A stretch of 64,000 nt of DNA from Ignavibacteriota bacterium (GCA_963837815.1 CAWIOS010000015.1:258774-322773); one strand, 5' to 3'. Shown: positions 13,902 through 21,811, counted from the first letter of the stretch. Numbers and translations: made by a program. Notes: generated from the sequence alone by a model not told the origin.

Positions 13902-14898
13902 TTACAGCGTCTCGACGGGGTACTTGTCGATCAGGTCAAGTATTGCCTCGATCGTCTTCGGTGAATTTCCCTCTGCCCTGTTGTTCACGTACGCGTAGAG
14001 CTGGCGCCCTTCGGCGACGCACCGCCGGACTGTCTCCGCAAGCCCCTGGCGGAGTTCGGGGTTTTCCTCTTTGATGGATTCGTACGGCTGGAAGAGATCC
14101 ACGGCCTCCTGATACGTTCTCCCGGGTTTCAGCAGCGCCCGCGCCACCGAGAATCTTGCGCTCAAGACGCCCGAGAGCTGAATCTGCTCCATGATCGGCG
14201 GCATCTTCGTCCAGCTGTTCAGGACGTGTGCGGCGCCCCTGTCGGCAAGCATCGTAAGGTAGTCGCCCGTCAGGTACTCCCTGTTCCGTATCTCGACCGC
14301 GTACGAGAACTCCTTCGGGAGGCGGGCGAGGAAGTCGTCCATAAGCCTGAGAAACTTTTCGTACGTCACCCCCGAGTTCGGATAGAACGCCGAGAATTCG
14401 AATATGATCACCCCGCGCTTTTTCCGCAGAGACTCAACCGGGCGGAGAAACGCGTCTTCGAAGAGCTCGAGATTCAGGAAATCCGGGTTCTCCCGACCGG
14501 CATTCGCTCCGTGACGTGGCAGGTTCGGATAGCGCCTGACGGTGATACGGTCGGTCACCTTCAGCGACAGCCTGAAATCATCCGTGGTGCTGTCATGGAT
14601 GATCTGCATCTGGTGCGCGTCCGGGAAATCATAAAGCGCGAAATCGGCGCACACGGTCGGGAAAAGACTGGAGTACTCGGTAATACATTCCCTCGCAAAC
14701 GCCTTCTTCGACGGGTACGCCCTGGTGTAGACAATCCCCTGCCACCCCGGGTACTTCCACGACGAAGACCCGAAATAGATCCCCCTGCTCGCCCAGCGGT
14801 GAAGCCGTTCGCGGTTGCGCTCGACGTACGGGGACTCCGGCGCAGTGACGTCGTCGAAGAGCGGGAGCGTATCCGGAGACTGTTTCTTCTTCGCCATG
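13902..14898 (-). CDS. DUF72 (YecE/UPF0759) family protein
   Basis: The start is MAKKKQSP. It has the family motifs ...IYFGSSSWKYPGWQGIVY... and C-terminal ...LYAYVNNRAEGN. Confidence 0.75.
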
Positions 14899-14982
14899 CC
14901 CCAATATAACACACCGGTGAGGAAAAAGAAAAAGCCCGCCGGGAGCGCCGGCGGGCAGTAGCGATGCGTCAGGCGAAAATGA

Positions 14983-15763
14983 CTACCGCAGCGACGCAAG
15001 CCCGAAAACTTTGACCAGGGTCCAGAGTACCCAGAGCGCGAAGACAAGCACGAGCACCTTGGGCGTGTCCTTCTGGAAAAGGCGCGCGAGTCCGATCCCC
15101 GTCACCGCAAGCGTCCAGAACGTGAACACGTTCACCGAAGCGGCTAGAAGATGCATCTTGTTCTCGAGGGAGAAGTCGGAGACAAACAGCGCGAGGCTCG
15201 GCGAGGCGAACATCGAGCTCATGCCGATTGCCAGGATCGTCGTTACGACGCTTTCGATCATCGAGATGAAGAACGTGAGCCCCACCACCTCGACGACCTT
15301 CATGTACGGTACTGTCGCCTTCATCACCCCTCTTCCGAGTAGCCAGAACACGAGGCCTCCGAGGAACAGCGCGAAAAACGGCCCGAGGATGGCGCTGACG
15401 TACGAAAATATGAGTGTGCCGGTCTGTCCCATTCCGGCCATCTGGTCGCGGGCCTGGCTCGCCTGCTCCTGCGTCATTTTGCCCGCCGCGATCTGCTTCT
15501 GCAAGCCTTTTTCCATCTGCTCGCTTGCCATCCGTTTCATCTGGTCTGAGAGAACGGGATTGCTCGTCATCAGGTACGCCATGATGATGCCGACGACGAC
15601 GAGTACCAATGTCGGAATCACCCAGTTGCTGCTCGTCGGAGGGGTTTGCCGGACATTGTCGAACAATTCTGAAGGTGAGGCAAACACGCCGACGAGTTTA
15701 TCACTGAACGACATCGGCTTCACCTCTTCCGTCGGGGCAGCCTGTACCGGAGTTTCGCTCATG
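14983..15763 (-). CDS. Yip1-domain integral membrane protein
   Basis: It has five predicted TM helices and a Yip1-like organisation. The likely start is MSETPVQ, with AAGGA 9 nt upstream. Confidence 0.55.
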
Positions 15764-16110
15764 GGAGGGGATCCTTCTTGTGTGGGGGTGTTCGGGACGG
15801 GAAAAATGTACAAAACGGAACACTGAGAAGAAAGGCGGAAAAAAACGGAAAACAACACGCCGGCACCCCATCCTGCCGGGGGACAGGACGGGGTGCCCGG
15901 CTTGCCGTCGTCGTGCGGTCCGTGGAAGCGGCGGGTCGGCGGCGGCGGAACGACGTTCTCCCCGGCCCCCCTCCGGTGCCGGGGTGCCGGTACAGGTAAC
16001 TACATGTTTCTGCGGACGTTTGCGAGATCGGATGGAATTTATTTTTATGCGGGAGCTCTCCGCGCGTTGTCCCTCAACGACTTCACAAGTTTTCCCCGGG
16101 AACGCACACG

Positions 16111-16160
16111 ACAAATTTGTTGTCTGATTATTGACAACACGACAAAAATGTCGTATCATT
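16111..16160 (+). promoter_or_regulatory. Promoter (TTGACA-N18-TATCAT) overlapped by three palindromes: ACAAATTTGT, GTTGTC-N8-GACAAC and ACGACA-N4-TGTCGT. This is a candidate damage-response (LexA-like) operator.
   Basis: Read directly from the sequence at 16111-16160. It lies immediately upstream of the Zn-ribbon/dinB/polB cassette. An RBS, AGGAGGTGAA, sits at 16204-16213. Confidence 0.5.
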
Positions 16161-16216: not shown

Positions 16217-16471
16217 GTGATCCGCACCGAACTGCTGTATGTCCTGTCGCCGGCGGAATGCTGCGTGTGCGAGCGGACATTGAGCGCCCGCGAGCTGGAG
16301 GAATTTTACGGAATGGCGGACGACACGCTGAGGGGAGACATCCAGTGTCCCTCCTGTGCCCTCCACACCCTGACACTGTGCCGCGAATGTTCATGCCGCT
16401 ACACGGCGGACCCGGGTGGCGTGTGCGGGGAATGCCAGAGACACGACTATGCGCACATTCTTTCTTCTTGA
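16217..16471 (+). CDS. Small Cys-rich zinc-ribbon protein (about 84 aa)
   Basis: It has a GTG start with a strong SD. There are four Cys pairs (CCVCE, CPSC, CRECSC, CGEC). It overlaps the dinB start by 23 nt. Confidence 0.45.
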   Translation: MIRTELLYVLSPAECCVCERTLSARELEEFYGMADDTLRGDIQCPSCALHTLTLCRECSCRYTADPGGVCGECQRHDYAHILSS

Positions 16472-17672
16472 CATCGATTGTTTCTTCGCCTCCGTCGAAA
16501 TGGCCCTGCACCCTGAACTCCGCGGCAAACCGCTGTGCGTCGGGGGACTGCGCACCGACAGGGGAATCGTCGCGTGTCCGAACTACGAGGCACGGAAATA
16601 CGGCGTGCGTACCGCCATGCCGTTGCGTACCGCCGCCCGGCTTCTTCCGTCGCAGGCGGTATTCATGCGCGGAAGCTACCGGCTCTACGGCGAATATTCG
16701 GAAAAAGTCATGACGATACTCCGGGATTTCACCCCCGACATGGAACAGGTGAGCGTGGACGAAGCGTACATGGACGTGACCGGGTGCCTGCATTTCTGGG
16801 GACACGACCCACGGCGCATGGCGGAGGCGATGAAGGAGCGGATATGGCGCGAATGCGGGCTGAGCGTTTCGATCGGCGCTGCATCGAACAGGGTATGCGC
16901 GAAGATCGCCGCCTCCGTGAACAAGCCGGACGGGCTCGTCGTGATACCGCCGGGGGCCGAGCGCGAGTTCCTGGATCCGCTCCCGGTGGAAGCCGTTCCC
17001 GGCATCGGTCCCCGGACGCTTCCGCATCTCCACACGCACGGCATCAGGACGGTGCGGGAGGCCGTGACCTACGTCGAGCGCAACACGCGTGCGACCGGAC
17101 AGTATCCCCCCCTGCGCGAGGAACGGCTCCGCACGTTTTCCCTCTGCTCCTTTATCGCCTCATGCGCCCTCCCGTCCGACGAGGCGATACTTCCGCACGA
17201 TCACGTCGAGAAATCGATTTCCCGCGACAGGACATTCGGTACGGACACCGCCGACAGCGAGCGCGTGAGCGCCACGCTCTACTGCCTCGCGGAACGCTGC
17301 TGCAAGACGCTCCGGCAGGATGAGCTCCTTGCCTCCACCGTCACCGTGCGCGTGCGGTTTGCCGACTTCGCGACGGTGCAGAAACAGTCCACGCTCCCCC
17401 GTCCCTCGTCGAACGAAGAAGACGTCTTCGCCGCCGCCCGGCGGCTGCTCGCGGCGCTTTCCGCGCCGGGGCAGCTCGTCCGTCTTGTCGGCGTGAAGGT
17501 GTCCAATCTGTCGGGGGCGGAAGAAGCCCAGCTTGACCTCGGCGTCACCGCCTCGGAAAAATTCGGCGCGCTCCACCGGCGGCTGGACGGCCTCCAGACC
17601 CGGTACGGGTACGACAGCATCCGCTGGGGGATCACCTGCAATGCGGCGGAGCGGCGGGAGGAACGGGAATGA
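16449..17672 (+). CDS. dinB: DNA polymerase IV (Y-family translesion polymerase)
   Basis: The catalytic residues are present in LLDIDCFFASVEM and SVDEAYMDVTG. Other DinB motifs are GIVACPNYEARKYGV and GIGPRT. Confidence 0.9.
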   Translation: MRTFFLLDIDCFFASVEMALHPELRGKPLCVGGLRTDRGIVACPNYEARKYGVRTAMPLRTAARLLPSQAVFMRGSYRLYGEYSEKVMTILRDFTPDMEQVSVDEAYMDVTGCLHFWGHDPRRMAEAMKERIWRECGLSVSIGAASNRVCAKIAASVNKPDGLVVIPPGAEREFLDPLPVEAVPGIGPRTLPHLHTHGIRTVREAVTYVERNTRATGQYPPLREERLRTFSLCSFIASCALPSDEAILPHDHVEKSISRDRTFGTDTADSERVSATLYCLAERCCKTLRQDELLASTVTVRVRFADFATVQKQSTLPRPSSNEEDVFAAARRLLAALSAPGQLVRLVGVKVSNLSGAEEAQLDLGVTASEKFGALHRRLDGLQTRYGYDSIRWGITCNAAERREERE

Positions 17673-18574
17673 TCGCATACGGCGACGACCCGGGGGAGCA
17701 GCTCCTTCCCCGCCTCCGTGCATGGAGGAGGCACAGCATCCATATCGGTCTCTCCCCCCGTTCGTCCGCGTTCTGGAGCGGGCTGCTCTACCGGGAGCCG
17801 CGCGGGGTCATACGGGAATATGCCCGGCTCTTCGACACGGCCCTGCTCCCCTGCGACCGCCGGTGCGGGCCCGATCCCGTGCTCCTTGCCCGGATGAATG
17901 GACAGGCCGGGGACGGCTTTGCATGGACGCTCTTCATCGACGACGGACCGGTGGTGTACCGGTTTCCGTACGGGCATCCCGACAGGAAAGCGCGGGGGGA
18001 AGTCAACCCGCATTTCCTTGACCCCGGGTGCATTGCCGGAACGTTCACGCCCGTGGCGCGGATTCTGGGGTCCTCCGTCCGTCTCGTGATGCTGAAGATC
18101 GGGAACGTCTGCAGGACTGAAGCGATGGATTTCGACGGATTCCTCCGCGCGCTCCTTCCCTGCCTCGACGCGCTCCCCCCGGCATACAGCTACGCGGTTG
18201 AAAACGGCACGTCCCGGTTCATACTGCCGGAGTACCTTGGAGCCCTGCGCGAGCGGAACATCATTCACGTGCCGGCGCCCGTTCCGCTTCTCGACGCCCT
18301 CCGCATCCCCGGCGCGTTCGGGACCGGCACCTGCGTGCTGCGCACGGCGTGCCTGGCGATGGAGGAAGAAGGAGAAGAATGGGCGGGATTCCGCGAGGCG
18401 GTCCGCATCTGCATCGGAGAAGAAAAGACGCTCTACGCATATCTCACGGATGGGGAAGAAACGGCGGTGTCCCCGGCGCCGGGCGGGACCGGCGCGCGCG
18501 CGCTCACACGTCTCCTGGCCGGGCTCGACCCCGAACTCGCCCGCCGCTCACCCATACGACGAAAAGCCGCGTGA
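17669..18574 (+). CDS. DUF72-like protein (divergent paralog of the 13902-14898 gene)
   Basis: Its start overlaps the dinB stop by 4 nt (ATGA-type overlap). It has IHIGLSPRSSAFWSGLLY, corresponding to IYFGSSSWKYPGWQGIVY in the paralog, and the C-terminal LYAYLTDGEE, corresponding to LYAYVNNRAEGN. Confidence 0.5.
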   Translation: MIAYGDDPGEQLLPRLRAWRRHSIHIGLSPRSSAFWSGLLYREPRGVIREYARLFDTALLPCDRRCGPDPVLLARMNGQAGDGFAWTLFIDDGPVVYRFPYGHPDRKARGEVNPHFLDPGCIAGTFTPVARILGSSVRLVMLKIGNVCRTEAMDFDGFLRALLPCLDALPPAYSYAVENGTSRFILPEYLGALRERNIIHVPAPVPLLDALRIPGAFGTGTCVLRTACLAMEEEGEEWAGFREAVRICIGEEKTLYAYLTDGEETAVSPAPGGTGARALTRLLAGLDPELARRSPIRRKAA

Positions 18575-18578
18575 CGTC

Positions 18579-19364
18579 ATGACCACCGATCCGCCCGTTC
18601 CGTACACGCAGCTCGTGCAGCAATTCAAGTCCGCCCCGCCGGGAAAACTGTACTGCATTCACGGTACGGGGGGCGTCTTCCGCATCTCCCTTGCGGCGGC
18701 GGCGCACGTGCTCCTGGGCGGCATGCCGGTGACGCTCGTGGACGGCACGAACCGGTTCGACGCGTACTACCTCGCCGAGTTCGCGCGGAAACACGCGGGG
18801 GTGCGCCCGGACGGGAGGAGGATCACCCCGGAGAGCCTGCTTGACAACATATTCATCTCCCGTGCGTTCACCTGCTACCAGATGGAAGCCGTGATCACGG
18901 AGCGCCTCCCCCTTTTCGTCCGGCAGAAGGGCTCCCCCGTCGTCATCATATTCGGCCTTCTCGACACGTTCTACGACGAGCAGGCGCCGCTCTTCCAGGT
19001 GAAAGCGGGACTGGAGAGGATTGCCGTCGCACTCCGGGCTCTCAAACAGGACCAGATCGCCGTGCTTCTGGCCTCGCTGGACGTGAAGCTCGACTCGAAG
19101 GAGCGAAACGCGCTGTTCCCGCGCATGATGGCGGTCATGGATCGCGTGTACCGACTCGTCGGGGACGCGGGGAGCCAGCGGCTCCTGCCGGAGATTCTCA
19201 CCGGGGCAACCGGCGCACGGGGGGAAAAGAACAGTCATACGACAAAGGAGGGCGCATTCCATGGGACGGACCGTACCGACGTTCACGATGGTCATCCAGC
19301 AGGAGATGGAAAGCTGGGGAAAATTCCGGCGCGGGCTGCGCAGGGAAGACCAGGAGGCGCTTGA
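18579..19364 (+). CDS. RecA-fold protein with a degenerate P-loop (ImuA/SulA-like)
   Basis: The start is MTTDPPVPYTQ, 4 nt after the upstream stop. It has the degenerate Walker A GTGGVFRIS (no GKT/S), a Walker-B-like hydrophobic strand VVIIFGLLDTFYDE, and a low-complexity C-terminal tail. Confidence 0.5.
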   Translation: MTTDPPVPYTQLVQQFKSAPPGKLYCIHGTGGVFRISLAAAAHVLLGGMPVTLVDGTNRFDAYYLAEFARKHAGVRPDGRRITPESLLDNIFISRAFTCYQMEAVITERLPLFVRQKGSPVVIIFGLLDTFYDEQAPLFQVKAGLERIAVALRALKQDQIAVLLASLDVKLDSKERNALFPRMMAVMDRVYRLVGDAGSQRLLPEILTGATGARGEKNSHTTKEGAFHGTDRTDVHDGHPAGDGKLGKIPARAAQGRPGGA

Positions 19365-19554
19365 CGAACTCTTCCGCGCGGCGCGCCTCCAGCTTGCGGG
19401 GAGCGCCTACGCCGCACGGCCGATCCCCTTCGAAAGCATCGCCATGTGCATGCTCCTGGCGCAGCACAGGATCATCGCGGACCTGCAGCAGCGGATGAAA
19501 CAACTGGAAGCAGCGCATGACGACAGCGCGGACAATCACCGGGTGGCTGTTTGA
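19288..19554 (+). CDS. Small all-helical hypothetical protein. It overlaps the 3' end of the ImuA-like ORF and the 5' end of polB.
   Basis: It is in a third reading frame and reads MVIQQEMESWGKFRRGLRREDQEALDELF.... Its stop overlaps the polB start by 38 nt. Confidence 0.3.
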   Translation: MVIQQEMESWGKFRRGLRREDQEALDELFRAARLQLAGSAYAARPIPFESIAMCMLLAQHRIIADLQQRMKQLEAAHDDSADNHRVAV

Positions 19555-21811
19555 CCTCTATCCGTCACGGCAGGGAATCACCCTCTGGCTTGTGGACCGT
19601 GACGGGGCGAAGCACTGCTGCCACGACGCGTTCGCCCCGTGGTTTTACATGCATGTCCCGCCTTCGGACGAGGCGCGCGTCGAGGCAATCGTGCGCCTTT
19701 TTCCGTTCCGCGTCACGCTCGACAGGACGGTGCGGAAGGAAATCTACACGAACGAAGAATGGGACGTCCTCCGCGTCACCGTGCATGACACGCTCCACCT
19801 GAAGGACGTCGTCCGCCGCCTCGAACCGCACTTCCCGCATTTCGTCTTTTTCGATTCCGACATCTCCTCTCAGCAGCTCTACCTCTACAGGACGGGGCTC
19901 TTCCCGCTTGGCTTCGCCGAGTACACGATCGACGAAGAGGGGCGTCTCGCCGGATGGAAACTGGACGACGATCCCGCCGCGCTGGAATACCTGCTCCCAC
20001 CCCTTGTGACGATGACGCTCAAGAGCATCCCCGACTTCGTCTCGCCGAAATACCGGAAGACGTACCAGCTCGAGGTCGGGTACGAGGGGAGCATGTACGC
20101 GCTCGAAAACGAGGAGCCGGCCGAGGTGATCGGATCGCTCAACCGCCATCTCACGCGGTGCGACCCGGACATCATTATGACCGAATTCGGGGATGCCATA
20201 CTCCTCCCGATGCTCACGCGCATTGCGGCCGAGGAGGGACTCCCGCTTGCACTCAACAGGGACCCCGATGCGGGGTACTTTACGACAGGCGAAACGAGCT
20301 ACTTCGCCTACGGCAAAATTGTCCACAAGGACGGCGCATTTGAGCTGGCCGGGCGCTGGCACCTTGACACGGAGAACTCGTTCATGATGGGGGAAGCAAG
20401 CCTCGACGGCGTCGCGGAAATCGCGCGCCTGACGCAGCTTCCCGTGCAGCACCAGTCCCGCGCGACGATCGGCTCGGCGCTCTCCTCGATGCAGCTCTCC
20501 TGGGCGTCGCGCAACGGGTACCTCATACCGGCCAAAAAACGGGAGCCCGAGGAATTCAAATCCGCCTCCACGCTCCTCCTTGCCGACCGCGGGGGGCTCA
20601 TATTCCAGCCTGTCATGGGATTCCACGAACAGATCGCGGAAATGGACTTCGTTTCGATGTACCCCACGATCATGGTCGAGCACAACGTCTCCCCGGAGAC
20701 CGTCAACTGCCGCTGCTGCCGCAACGAAGCGGTCCCCGAACTGGGCTACACGATCTGCGAGCGCCGTGAAGGGATCGTCCCCGCCACGCTCCGCACCGTC
20801 GTCACGAAGCGGGCCGCGTACAAGAAGACCAGGAAAGCCCTCAAGCGCGCCGGGGACGGGAAATGGAAGCTGTACGACCGCCGGCAGAATGCGCTCAAAT
20901 GGATGCTCGTCACCTGCTTCGGCTACCTCGGTTACAAGAACGCCCGTTTCGGGCGGATCGAGGCGCACGAATCGGTAAACGCATTCTCCCGCGAAGCGAT
21001 CCTGCGCGCCAAGGAAATTGCGGAGGATCGGGGATACAAATTCATACACGCGATCGTGGACTGCATGTGGCTCTGGAAGGAGGGGGCGACCGAAGCGGAT
21101 TACGAATCACTCGCCCTGGAGGTGCGGAAAATCGTCGGGATCGACATCTCGCTCGAGGGGATGTACAACTGGATACTCTTCCCCTCGTCGAAGATGGATC
21201 CCCGCATACCGACCGCCAACCGGTACGTCGGCTGGTACGCAAACAACGAGATCAAGATCCGCGGCATCGAAGTCCGGAGGCGCGACACCCCCGTCTTCAT
21301 AAAGCGCCTCCAGGGGGAAATGCTCCAGATATTCGGCACGGCGCCCACCGTTGCAAAGCTGGAAGAACTCATCCCCGCGGCCCTTGCGAAGGCCGGCGAA
21401 GCGGTCGCGCTCCTCCGCTCCGGAACGGCGAACCCGCTCGAGCTTGTCATCCGCCGCCACCTGTCGCGTGACCCGGAAGAATACACGACAAACACCGCAA
21501 GTGCCGGCGCGGCGAAAGCCCTCGACGAGGCGGGCGTCCATCTTGCGCCGGGGGAAATGGTCGAATACATCATCGTGGACGCTTCCGGGAAAAAGAAGCC
21601 CGCGAAGGCGCTCCCGGTCCCCCTCTACGAATCCGCCGAAGGGTACGACATCGAAACGTACACCGACATGGCGCTCAAAGCCGTTGAGACGCTCCTCCTG
21701 CCGTTCGGGTACGACGTGGAGAAGCTGCGCGAAGTGTTCGGCTGCTCGCTGAAGAAGAAGTTCCCGGCCATCTCCCGCGACACGGTGCAGGGGTCACTCT
21801 TCGATTGCTGA
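19517..21811 (+). CDS. polB: B-family DNA polymerase, predicted proofreading-deficient (Exo I motif lost) with a divergent motif C
   Basis: Motif A is DFVSMYPTIM and motif B is KWMLVTCFGYLGYKNARFG. Motif C is IHAIVDCMW instead of IYGDTDS. The Exo I position reads VTMTLKS where Pol II has VSIDIET. At 764 aa it is about the length of E. coli Pol II. Confidence 0.8.
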   Translation: MTTARTITGWLFDLYPSRQGITLWLVDRDGAKHCCHDAFAPWFYMHVPPSDEARVEAIVRLFPFRVTLDRTVRKEIYTNEEWDVLRVTVHDTLHLKDVVRRLEPHFPHFVFFDSDISSQQLYLYRTGLFPLGFAEYTIDEEGRLAGWKLDDDPAALEYLLPPLVTMTLKSIPDFVSPKYRKTYQLEVGYEGSMYALENEEPAEVIGSLNRHLTRCDPDIIMTEFGDAILLPMLTRIAAEEGLPLALNRDPDAGYFTTGETSYFAYGKIVHKDGAFELAGRWHLDTENSFMMGEASLDGVAEIARLTQLPVQHQSRATIGSALSSMQLSWASRNGYLIPAKKREPEEFKSASTLLLADRGGLIFQPVMGFHEQIAEMDFVSMYPTIMVEHNVSPETVNCRCCRNEAVPELGYTICERREGIVPATLRTVVTKRAAYKKTRKALKRAGDGKWKLYDRRQNALKWMLVTCFGYLGYKNARFGRIEAHESVNAFSREAILRAKEIAEDRGYKFIHAIVDCMWLWKEGATEADYESLALEVRKIVGIDISLEGMYNWILFPSSKMDPRIPTANRYVGWYANNEIKIRGIEVRRRDTPVFIKRLQGEMLQIFGTAPTVAKLEELIPAALAKAGEAVALLRSGTANPLELVIRRHLSRDPEEYTTNTASAGAAKALDEAGVHLAPGEMVEYIIVDASGKKKPAKALPVPLYESAEGYDIETYTDMALKAVETLLLPFGYDVEKLREVFGCSLKKKFPAISRDTVQGSLFDC

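Follow-up and report, generated by a model that had tools for sequence, protein, structure and literature searches.

The PolB2 group of B-family DNA polymerases carries HxxxD in place of YxDTD and has lost its exonuclease (Exo) motifs (Feng et al. 2022, PMC8764526). PolB2 has been described since 2008, was characterised as an active extender in Sulfolobus between 2020 and 2022, and was catalogued in bacteria, including Ignavibacteriales, between 2020 and 2026. Purified Dpo2 from S. islandicus and S. solfataricus shows robust nucleotide incorporation with no detectable 3′-5′ exonuclease. It has good fidelity on undamaged DNA, inserts poorly opposite lesions, extends mismatched and lesion-paired termini efficiently and equals the replicase Dpo1 in activity, and its gene is damage-inducible (PMC8764526). 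The dpo2 gene is also needed for targeted mutagenesis. A bacterial clade, G2, has the same substitutions and is predicted to work alike (PMC7544198, PMC11791011, PMC12926913); the biochemistry of PolB2 has so far been archaeal, with no bacterial member characterised (PMC12926913). Here we analyse a B-family polymerase gene, polB2, in a 64,000-nucleotide stretch of DNA from an Ignavibacteriota bacterium (GCA_963837815.1, CAWIOS010000015.1:258774-322773), which we call the window and from whose first letter all positions are counted. With a probability of roughly 85%, the open reading frame (ORF) is a bacterial PolB2 of the G2 group that serves as a damage-tolerance extender in an iRadA-PPB2-PolB2 mutasome operon.

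The definition of PolB2 and its operons have been set out in several papers (PMC4104785, PMC7544198, PMC11791011, PMC12926913). The partners of the polymerase are an inactivated RadA (iRadA) and PPB2 (arCOG07300), and in bacteria the genes occur only in the order iRadA-PPB2-PolB2 (PMC11791011, PMC4104785). PPB2 is a protein of ~90 amino acids (aa) with an MGRT N-terminal arm as its signature, the clamp-binding motif lies on either PolB2 or iRadA and rarely on both, and AlphaFold-Multimer/AF3 studies predict a PolB2:iRadA:PPB2x3 heteropentamer on the sliding clamp (PMC11791011). The supplement of the same study lists an Ignavibacteriales operon, "DUF72 iRadA PPB2 PolB2", with the sequence HAIIDCVWL (PMC11791011). 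In the window, iRadA, PPB2 and PolB2 are adjacent, co-directional on the + strand and overlapping, and it is this genomic context, with iRadA and PPB2 directly upstream, that settles the identity of the polymerase as PolB2.

The iRadA gene (18579-19364, + strand) is found in public data as exactly the same called gene and encodes 261 aa that form a RadA/Rad51-like core without the N-terminal domain. Both of its ATPase motifs are degenerate: Walker A reads HGTGGVFR, without the Lys, and Walker B reads IIFGLLD, with the Asp replaced by Phe125. When an iRadA profile was compared with PDB sequences, RadA/Rad51 proteins were the top 8 matches at E 0.08-0.3, and Foldseek with the AlphaFold2 (AF2) model (mean local confidence, pLDDT, 79.8) returned Rad51 paralogues, RadA and DMC1 at probability 1.0 and E 2e-8. 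The profile match is only marginal, and the assignment draws mainly on AF2 and Foldseek. PPB2 (19261-19554, + strand; 97 aa) starts with MGRTVPTFT, which is invariant among 15 loci, and has its own Shine-Dalgarno sequence, AAGGAGG, inside the end of iRadA. Pfam and NCBIfam searches at permissive E-values gave no match for iRadA, PPB2 or two further ORFs of the operon, one DUF72-like and one Cys-rich, so these four were identified by synteny, motifs, cross-BLAST and structure. The last 104 nucleotides of iRadA (19261-19364) overlap the start of PPB2 in a different frame. Roughly half of the related loci have an iRadA that ends ahead of PPB2, and the overlapping tail seen here (…HGTDRTDVHDGHPAGDGKLGKIPARAAQGRPGGA) is probably a by-product of the invariant coding sequence for the PPB2 N-terminus. 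A candidate beta-clamp-binding motif, QGSLF (aa 758-762; 21788-21802, + strand), lies at the C-terminus of PolB2. The pattern Q..LF occurs within the last 25 residues in 75 of 120 close PolB2 relatives and in none of 120 iRadA relatives, and a candidate motif on PolB2 with none on iRadA fits the published either/or distribution.

The polB2 ORF itself (19517-21811, + strand) begins with ATG and encodes 764 aa. The gene marked in a preliminary description of this DNA is real, and an identical protein is already public on a 534-kb contig; members of its cluster carry no annotation beyond "DNA polymerase domain-containing protein" or "DNA polymerase-2". The Pfam DNA_pol_B model matches at E=8e-32, and the nearest solved structures are Thermococcus/Pyrococcus (Thermococcales) PolB enzymes (E~1e-46 over residues 279-738); by these sequence matches the ORF belongs unmistakably to the B family, far beyond chance. 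The NCBIfam models NF004418 and NF004416 match it over its full length at 1e-118 to 1e-119. Its AF2 model has a pLDDT of 76.7 and a predicted TM-score (pTM) of 0.76, and Foldseek superposes the full-length model on archaeal PolB1/PolB3 structures (5mdn, 4k8z) at TM ~0.65. Identity to the Ignavibacteriales PolB2 in the PMC11791011 supplement is ~79%, a figure for the 61-aa motif B-C segment only.

Conservation of the polymerase site was counted over 126 sequences, comprising the ORF and 125 diverse representatives at 33-58% identity. Motif A, DFVSMYPTIM (aa 377-386; 20645-20674, + strand), aligns to DFRSLYPSII and holds the catalytic D377, kept in 126/126, and the steric-gate Y382, kept in 121/126. 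Motif B, KWMLVTCFGYLGY (aa 461-473; 20897-20935, + strand), aligns to KILANSYYGYYGY and has the form K461-WML-VTCFGYLGY, with K461 retained in all but one of the family (125/126). At motif C, HAIVDCMW (aa 511-518; 21047-21070, + strand) puts HxxxD in the place of YxDTD: HAIVDCM (aa 511-517) aligns column for column with YSDTDGF of KOD polymerase, I513 occupies the position of the first Asp, and D515 is the kept metal-binding Asp. H511 is present in 119/126 sequences and D515 in 126/126; position 513 is I, L, Y, N, V or M, and in no sequence Asp. The preliminary description had called motifs A and B canonical and had read motif C as a loss of the first Asp to Ile with retention of the second, and the alignment agrees on each point. 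It had also taken the absence of motif A or of the second motif C Asp as the mark of an inactive scaffold; D377 and D515 are present in every sequence. The primer-binding KKRY of archaeal PolBs reads T-A-N-R-Y here (aa 566-570; 21212-21226), and in the family its N, R and Y columns are filled by these residues in 102, 111 and 101 of the 126.

The same description placed the Exo I motif at VTMTLKS and had both the Asp and the Glu of DxE lost. To place Exo I, a HMMER profile of 40 relatives was aligned with P. abyssi PolB, and hhalign (probability 98.4) gave a comparison with Pfu PolB; the Pfu PolB query agrees with the PDB segments in the HMMER output. Both alignments set LVTMTLK against IIMISYA of strand beta-2, and LAGWKLDD against LAFDIET, the Exo I strand. 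The AF2 model concurs, with strands at 143-149, 165-170, 183-189 and 192-198 followed by a helix at 201-215, an order that reproduces the four strands ahead of helix A in B-family exonuclease domains. VTMTLKS (aa 164-170; 20006-20026, + strand) is thus strand beta-2 by all three methods, and the true Exo I equivalent is GWKLDDD (aa 146-152; 19952-19972, + strand), one strand off, where the Asp has become K148 and the Glu D150 rather than Thr in both cases. Columns 148 and 150 are variable across the family.

The remaining exonuclease motifs are also degraded. Exo II corresponds to TEFGDAILLP (aa 222-231; 20180-20209, + strand), aligned to TYNGDNFDFAY, in which the Asn is replaced by F224 and the Asp by L229; in the family, column 224 is variable (W, G, Y and others) and column 229 is mostly hydrophobic (L/I/V). 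Downstream lies a low-confidence loop (aa 242-278; 20240-20350, + strand; pLDDT <50 at aa 255-274) with a conserved S-Y-F-S/T-Y-G-R/K sequence, in the region predicted to contact iRadA and the PPB2 N-terminal arm (PMC11791011). The loop leads into GRWHLD (aa 279-284; 20351-20368, + strand), an invariant strand with the C-terminal half of the Exo III helix directly after it, where G279 and R280 are kept in 126/126, H282 in 123/126 and D284 in 119/126. Between Exo II and the SRSSTG region the protein has ~48 residues fewer than KOD, a deficit that removes or scrambles the Exo III Y-x3-D. HMMER and hhalign differ over D284, which either corresponds to the Exo III Asp or precedes a deletion of the complete motif; by either alignment, Y-x3-D is not intact. 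This agrees with the statement of Kazlauskas 2020 that "ExoIII is missing altogether" in the PolB2 group (PMC7544198). With the Exo I columns unconserved, the Exo II Asn and Asp lost, and Exo III deleted or unrecognisable, the alignments indicate that the PolB2 ORF has no proofreading site. Loss of 3′-5′ proofreading, which the preliminary description had predicted from a misplaced motif, therefore stands on different residues. Its broader view, of an exonuclease-deficient and probably competent polymerase of translesion or mutagenic type, is supported by the invariant catalytic residues and fits the published PolB2 picture, with one refinement: the homologue that has been characterised copies undamaged DNA with good fidelity and acts as an extender, not as a lesion inserter.

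We compared the locus with 29 relatives (loci L001-L029) from GTDB species genomes, which are Ignavibacteriota/Bacteroidota metagenome-assembled genomes (MAGs) at 68-96% identity. The order iRadA-PPB2-PolB2 is found in 23 of the 29, which are those with the region upstream of PolB2 recovered. The loci share a neighbourhood, on contigs of up to 3.7 Mb, in which DUF72 and Yip1 genes lie upstream on the opposite strand and a PMT-type glycosyltransferase gene lies downstream, and there is no shift in GC content or composition around PolB2. The conserved neighbourhood argues for a chromosomal repair locus rather than a mobile element. In three MAG loci the PolB2 match falls into 3-5 pieces in differing frames (L024:6001-8210, L027:2-1614 and L029:6001-8279), and these copies are either assembly errors or decaying genes.

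PolB2 is the last of six co-directional, tightly packed genes, some of which overlap their neighbours, in the order 8-Cys ORF, DinB, DUF72-like, iRadA, PPB2, PolB2. The first (16217-16471, + strand; ribosome-binding site GGAGG) is an unannotated Cys-rich ORF of 84 aa with four CxxC pairs (CCxC...CxxC...CxxC...CxxC), whose 3′ end overlaps the start of dinB; it is kept as the first gene in 11 of the 29 genome loci, with or without DinB. The second, dinB (16449-17672, + strand), encodes a Y-family DNA polymerase IV with the Pfam domains IMS (2.8e-45), IMS_C and IMS_HHH and a score of 262.7 against the NCBIfam DNA polymerase IV model NF002677, above its cut-off of 256. Read from the sequence, its catalytic residues are in place, in LLDIDCFFASVE (LLDID) and in SVDEAY. 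DinB lies inside the operon in 9 of the 29 genome loci, and in the published group 1a IMS domains were near only 4 of 1375 operons (PMC11791011). The arrangement suggests that DinB and PolB2 are a hard-wired inserter/extender pair. The third gene (17669-18574, + strand; 301 aa) is a divergent DUF72-family paralogue identified by tblastn cross-matches to canonical DUF72 genes (22-29% identity, E 1e-10 to 1e-37), with no Pfam match even at E<=5. A canonical DUF72 gene (13902-15047, - strand; Pfam 2.3e-27) lies upstream of the operon beside the gene for the Yip1 membrane protein, and a canonical DUF72 gene fills the in-operon position in metagenome loci of other lineages. An association of DUF72 with PolB2 operons has already been published (PMC11791011).

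Ahead of the operon stands a sigma-70-like promoter, TTGACA, a 17-nucleotide spacer and TATCAT (16131-16159, + strand), with 11 of 12 consensus matches. Its spacer contains a perfect 16-bp palindrome, ACGACAAAAATGTCGT (16139-16154), a candidate operator of the form ACGACA-N4-TGTCGT, and a second, imperfect copy with one mismatch, CGACAAATTTGTTG (16109-16122), lies directly upstream of the -35 element at a position conserved across loci. The promoter and palindromes together (cTTGACAanaCGACAAAAATGTCGTATnnT, 16109-16159) are conserved ahead of the first operon gene, whichever it is, in 21 genome loci. In the window this is the sole exact CGACA-N4-TGTCG; one-mismatch copies of the core elsewhere in the window number 6 against 4 expected, no excess over chance, and so no further regulon members can be claimed there.

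When metagenome contigs were scanned for the 18-mer ACGACAAAAATGTCGTAT, at least 120 loci (L030-L149) came up, and the following counts are among the 120 matches listed. The palindrome stands mostly ahead of PolB2-operon genes, including those of PolB2 operons only 44-60% identical to the one described here. The first gene downstream is the Cys-rich ORF in 24 cases, iRadA in 23, a DUF72-family gene in 13, DinB in 12, a TcmP-like gene in 6, an SplB-like radical SAM gene in 4, Panacea in 2, and an XRE-S24 repressor gene and Yip1 in 1 each; the gene was unknown in 24, and 10 had too little downstream sequence. In 27 loci a divergent gene for a 215-aa protein with HTH_3 and Peptidase_S24 domains (Pfam 4e-12 and 8e-26) lies within 600 nucleotides of the palindrome (L031, L044, L054, L062, L063, L081, L084, L088 and others), and in locus L055 (1627-2271) the XRE-S24 gene is itself the first gene of the operon. 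Because the palindrome adjoins this gene in metagenome loci, it probably serves as operator for a LexA-like repressor of a non-canonical, XRE type. It differs from the two operator motifs published for Bacteroidetes, and no relevant paper came from a search of the literature for LexA motifs in Ignavibacteria. A tblastn search of the window found no match for the metagenomic XRE-S24 repressor or for E. coli LexA. The same operator and promoter also stand ahead of genes unrelated to PolB2. In L032, L052, L073, L089 and L104 the gene encodes a 282-289-aa protein with no Pfam match, which we take to be TcmP-like; others encode an SplB-like radical SAM protein (L100), SocA/Panacea (L030, L079) and stand-alone DUF72 (L041, L076, L095). 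This distribution hints at a small damage-response regulon.

Several alternatives to an active extender have to be weighed. In the prediction first made for PolB2 (Rogozin 2008, Makarova 2014), the protein is a PolB without catalytic activity and serves only as a scaffold of structural or regulatory kind, here for iRadA and PPB2. The loss of the first motif C Asp, of the motif C Tyr and of the exonuclease motifs speaks for it, as does the lack of a published assay for any bacterial member. However, D377, D515, K461, Y382, N-R-Y and K-x-R-G/R-R-x-D are near-invariant at 33-58% identity, which makes a dead scaffold hard to sustain, and Sulfolobus Dpo2, which has the same HxxxD, matches the replicase Dpo1 in activity (PMC8764526); we regard this alternative as improbable. 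An origin in a casposon, pipolin, plasmid or prophage, with the enzyme serving a mobile element rather than chromosomal repair, would draw on the general view that bacterial PolBs were horizontally acquired and on the presence of the operator ahead of Panacea and TcmP-like genes, frequent companions of mobile elements. Yet synteny from DUF72-Yip1 through the operon to the PMT glycosyltransferase is conserved across Ignavibacteriota/Bacteroidota MAGs, and no GC shift surrounds the locus. Its nearest structures are RNA-primed archaeal PolB1/PolB3 and not protein-primed polymerases or piPolB, and its partners are specifically iRadA and PPB2, so that a mobile-element polymerase seems very unlikely. 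Equally slight is the chance that the ORF is an orthologue of E. coli Pol II, or its functional counterpart, and thus an SOS polymerase that proofreads with exonuclease motifs diverged past recognition. Like Pol II, it belongs to the B family, has a candidate clamp motif at its C-terminus and lies behind an operator that is probably of SOS type, and the acidic residues D150-D152 persist near the Exo I strand. The NCBIfam Pol II models nevertheless cover only aa 321-687, with E no better than 2e-15, compared with 1e-119 for the full-length PolB2-type match; the Exo II Asn and Asp have become hydrophobic and the Exo III Tyr is lost; and a motif C HxxxD never occurs in the G1/Pol II group (PMC8764526, PMC7544198).

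Some observations weigh against the assignment to an active, non-proofreading PolB2 under damage control. The exonuclease-like domain retains conserved acidic residues, namely D151 (D/E in 108/126), D226 (120/126) and D284 (119/126); by alignment these lie off the catalytic positions. The D(K/R) loop motif of the literature has no confident counterpart in the protein. Its candidate is N247-R248, just ahead of the low-confidence residues 255-274, and in the columns that would correspond, by an uncertain mapping, to S. islandicus 253-254, position 247 is D in 35, G in 35 and N in 33 of 126, and R248 is kept in 122/126. The NCBIfam PolB2-type models cover the ORF over its full length yet stay below their curated cut-offs. 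In addition, both the activity and the missing proofreading are extrapolations from Sulfolobus Dpo2, an enzyme with a more decayed exonuclease domain than the protein here, and with neither an S24 repressor nor a canonical LexA in the window, the case for damage control at this locus comes from operator conservation alone.

The reading as a PolB2 extender leads to the following model. The PolB2 lineage would have been acquired from archaea by horizontal transfer. By analogy with Dpo2, the enzyme is likely to polymerise without exonuclease activity: its exonuclease domain would have decayed to a non-catalytic remnant, and the polymerase site would work with motif A D377 and a lone motif C D515 in the H-x-x-x-D context. 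Upon DNA damage, an S24-type (LexA-like) repressor would leave the palindromic operator and the operon would be transcribed. PolB2, one iRadA and a PPB2 trimer would then assemble into the predicted 'PolB2 mutasome', and the QGSLF at the C-terminus of PolB2 would dock this complex on the beta-clamp. There, mismatched or lesion-opposed primer ends may be extended without excision, after the co-transcribed DinB or another polymerase has inserted opposite the lesion.

PolB2 here is an ordinary member of a described family and not a novel enzyme; its odd motifs are the hallmarks of PolB2. The regulatory side observations are modestly new: the PolB2 literature cited here was found to hold no mention of the operator, the XRE-S24 link or the Cys-rich leader gene. 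We tentatively propose, as an idea that is somewhat less probable than even, that the six genes may form one damage-tolerance operon under a single promoter, with DinB as inserter, a DUF72-type putative damage nuclease, an 8-Cys zinc-ribbon protein and PolB2 as extender. An XRE + S24 repressor could control it through the undescribed operator ACGACA-N4-TGTCGT as part of an SOS-type regulon of Ignavibacteriota-like bacteria that would take in the PolB2 operon, DUF72, SplB-like radical SAM and TcmP-like genes, and the zinc-ribbon protein might be an undescribed mutasome subunit or regulator. The locus is useful as a complete, well-conserved operon from a group that is without a biochemically characterised bacterial PolB2, and the candidate clamp motif on the polymerase and the sharply defined promoter/operator add to its usefulness. 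Co-transcription of DinB makes the inserter/extender hypothesis directly testable, and the operator, the XRE-S24 link and the Cys-rich gene could extend SOS-type regulation beyond the known Bacteroidetes motifs.

Comparison with other damage-tolerance polymerases places these features in context. E. coli DNA polymerase II (PolB, G1) is also a B-family enzyme with a C-terminal clamp motif, here a candidate, and is a damage-inducible polymerase of damage tolerance, but it belongs to another clade and is a single-subunit enzyme. Its DEDDy exonuclease is intact and its motif C reads YxDTD, two Pol II-type (G1) features that are both absent from the PolB2 ORF. Eukaryotic Pol zeta (Rev3-Rev7) resembles the proposed system in being a multisubunit B-family polymerase with an inactivated exonuclease domain that extends after a Y-family inserter. 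It is a functional analogue only, with unrelated accessory subunits, an intact motif C and a place in the Delta-like clade (PMC7544198). The Pol V mutasome (UmuD′2C-RecA) and ImuA-ImuB-DnaE2 are, like the system proposed here, SOS-controlled mutagenic complexes with a RecA/Rad51-family component, and the architectural parallels between Pol V and the PolB2 mutasome have been discussed (PMC11791011). Their catalytic subunits are the Y-family UmuC and the C-family DnaE2, as opposed to the B-family PolB2; the DinB of this operon keeps its catalytic residues, unlike ImuB, and iRadA is of RadA/Rad51 type and not RecA or ImuA. An ImuA-ImuB-DnaE2 cassette was considered for the locus and rejected, as it contains no DnaE2 and its DinB retains the catalytic residues.

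Sulfolobus Dpo2 has the same partner genes and the same motif C signature, with IID where the ORF here has IVD. Among PolB2 enzymes Dpo2 is the smallest, with most of its exonuclease domain deleted, whereas the 764-aa protein here is modelled with a full-size, folded exonuclease-like domain. In addition, PolB2 here would use the bacterial beta-clamp in place of PCNA, and archaeal regulation involves Orc1/Cdc6, as against the candidate S24 repressor here. From the published bacterial PolB2 (G2) mutasome operons (Kazlauskas 2020; Timinskas, Timinskas & Venclovas 2025), the locus differs in having an active-looking DinB inside the operon, an in-operon DUF72 that has diverged past Pfam detection and an unannotated 84-aa, 8-Cys ORF as the leading gene, and its candidate regulator is XRE-S24 rather than the canonical LexA counted there. 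In other respects it corresponds to them: the polymerase has HxxxD, an unconserved Exo I and no Exo III, the order is iRadA-PPB2-PolB2, PPB2 starts with MGRT, iRadA is without ATPase residues, the candidate clamp motif is on PolB2 and not on iRadA, a DUF72 gene is adjacent, and Ignavibacteriales operons are among those catalogued.

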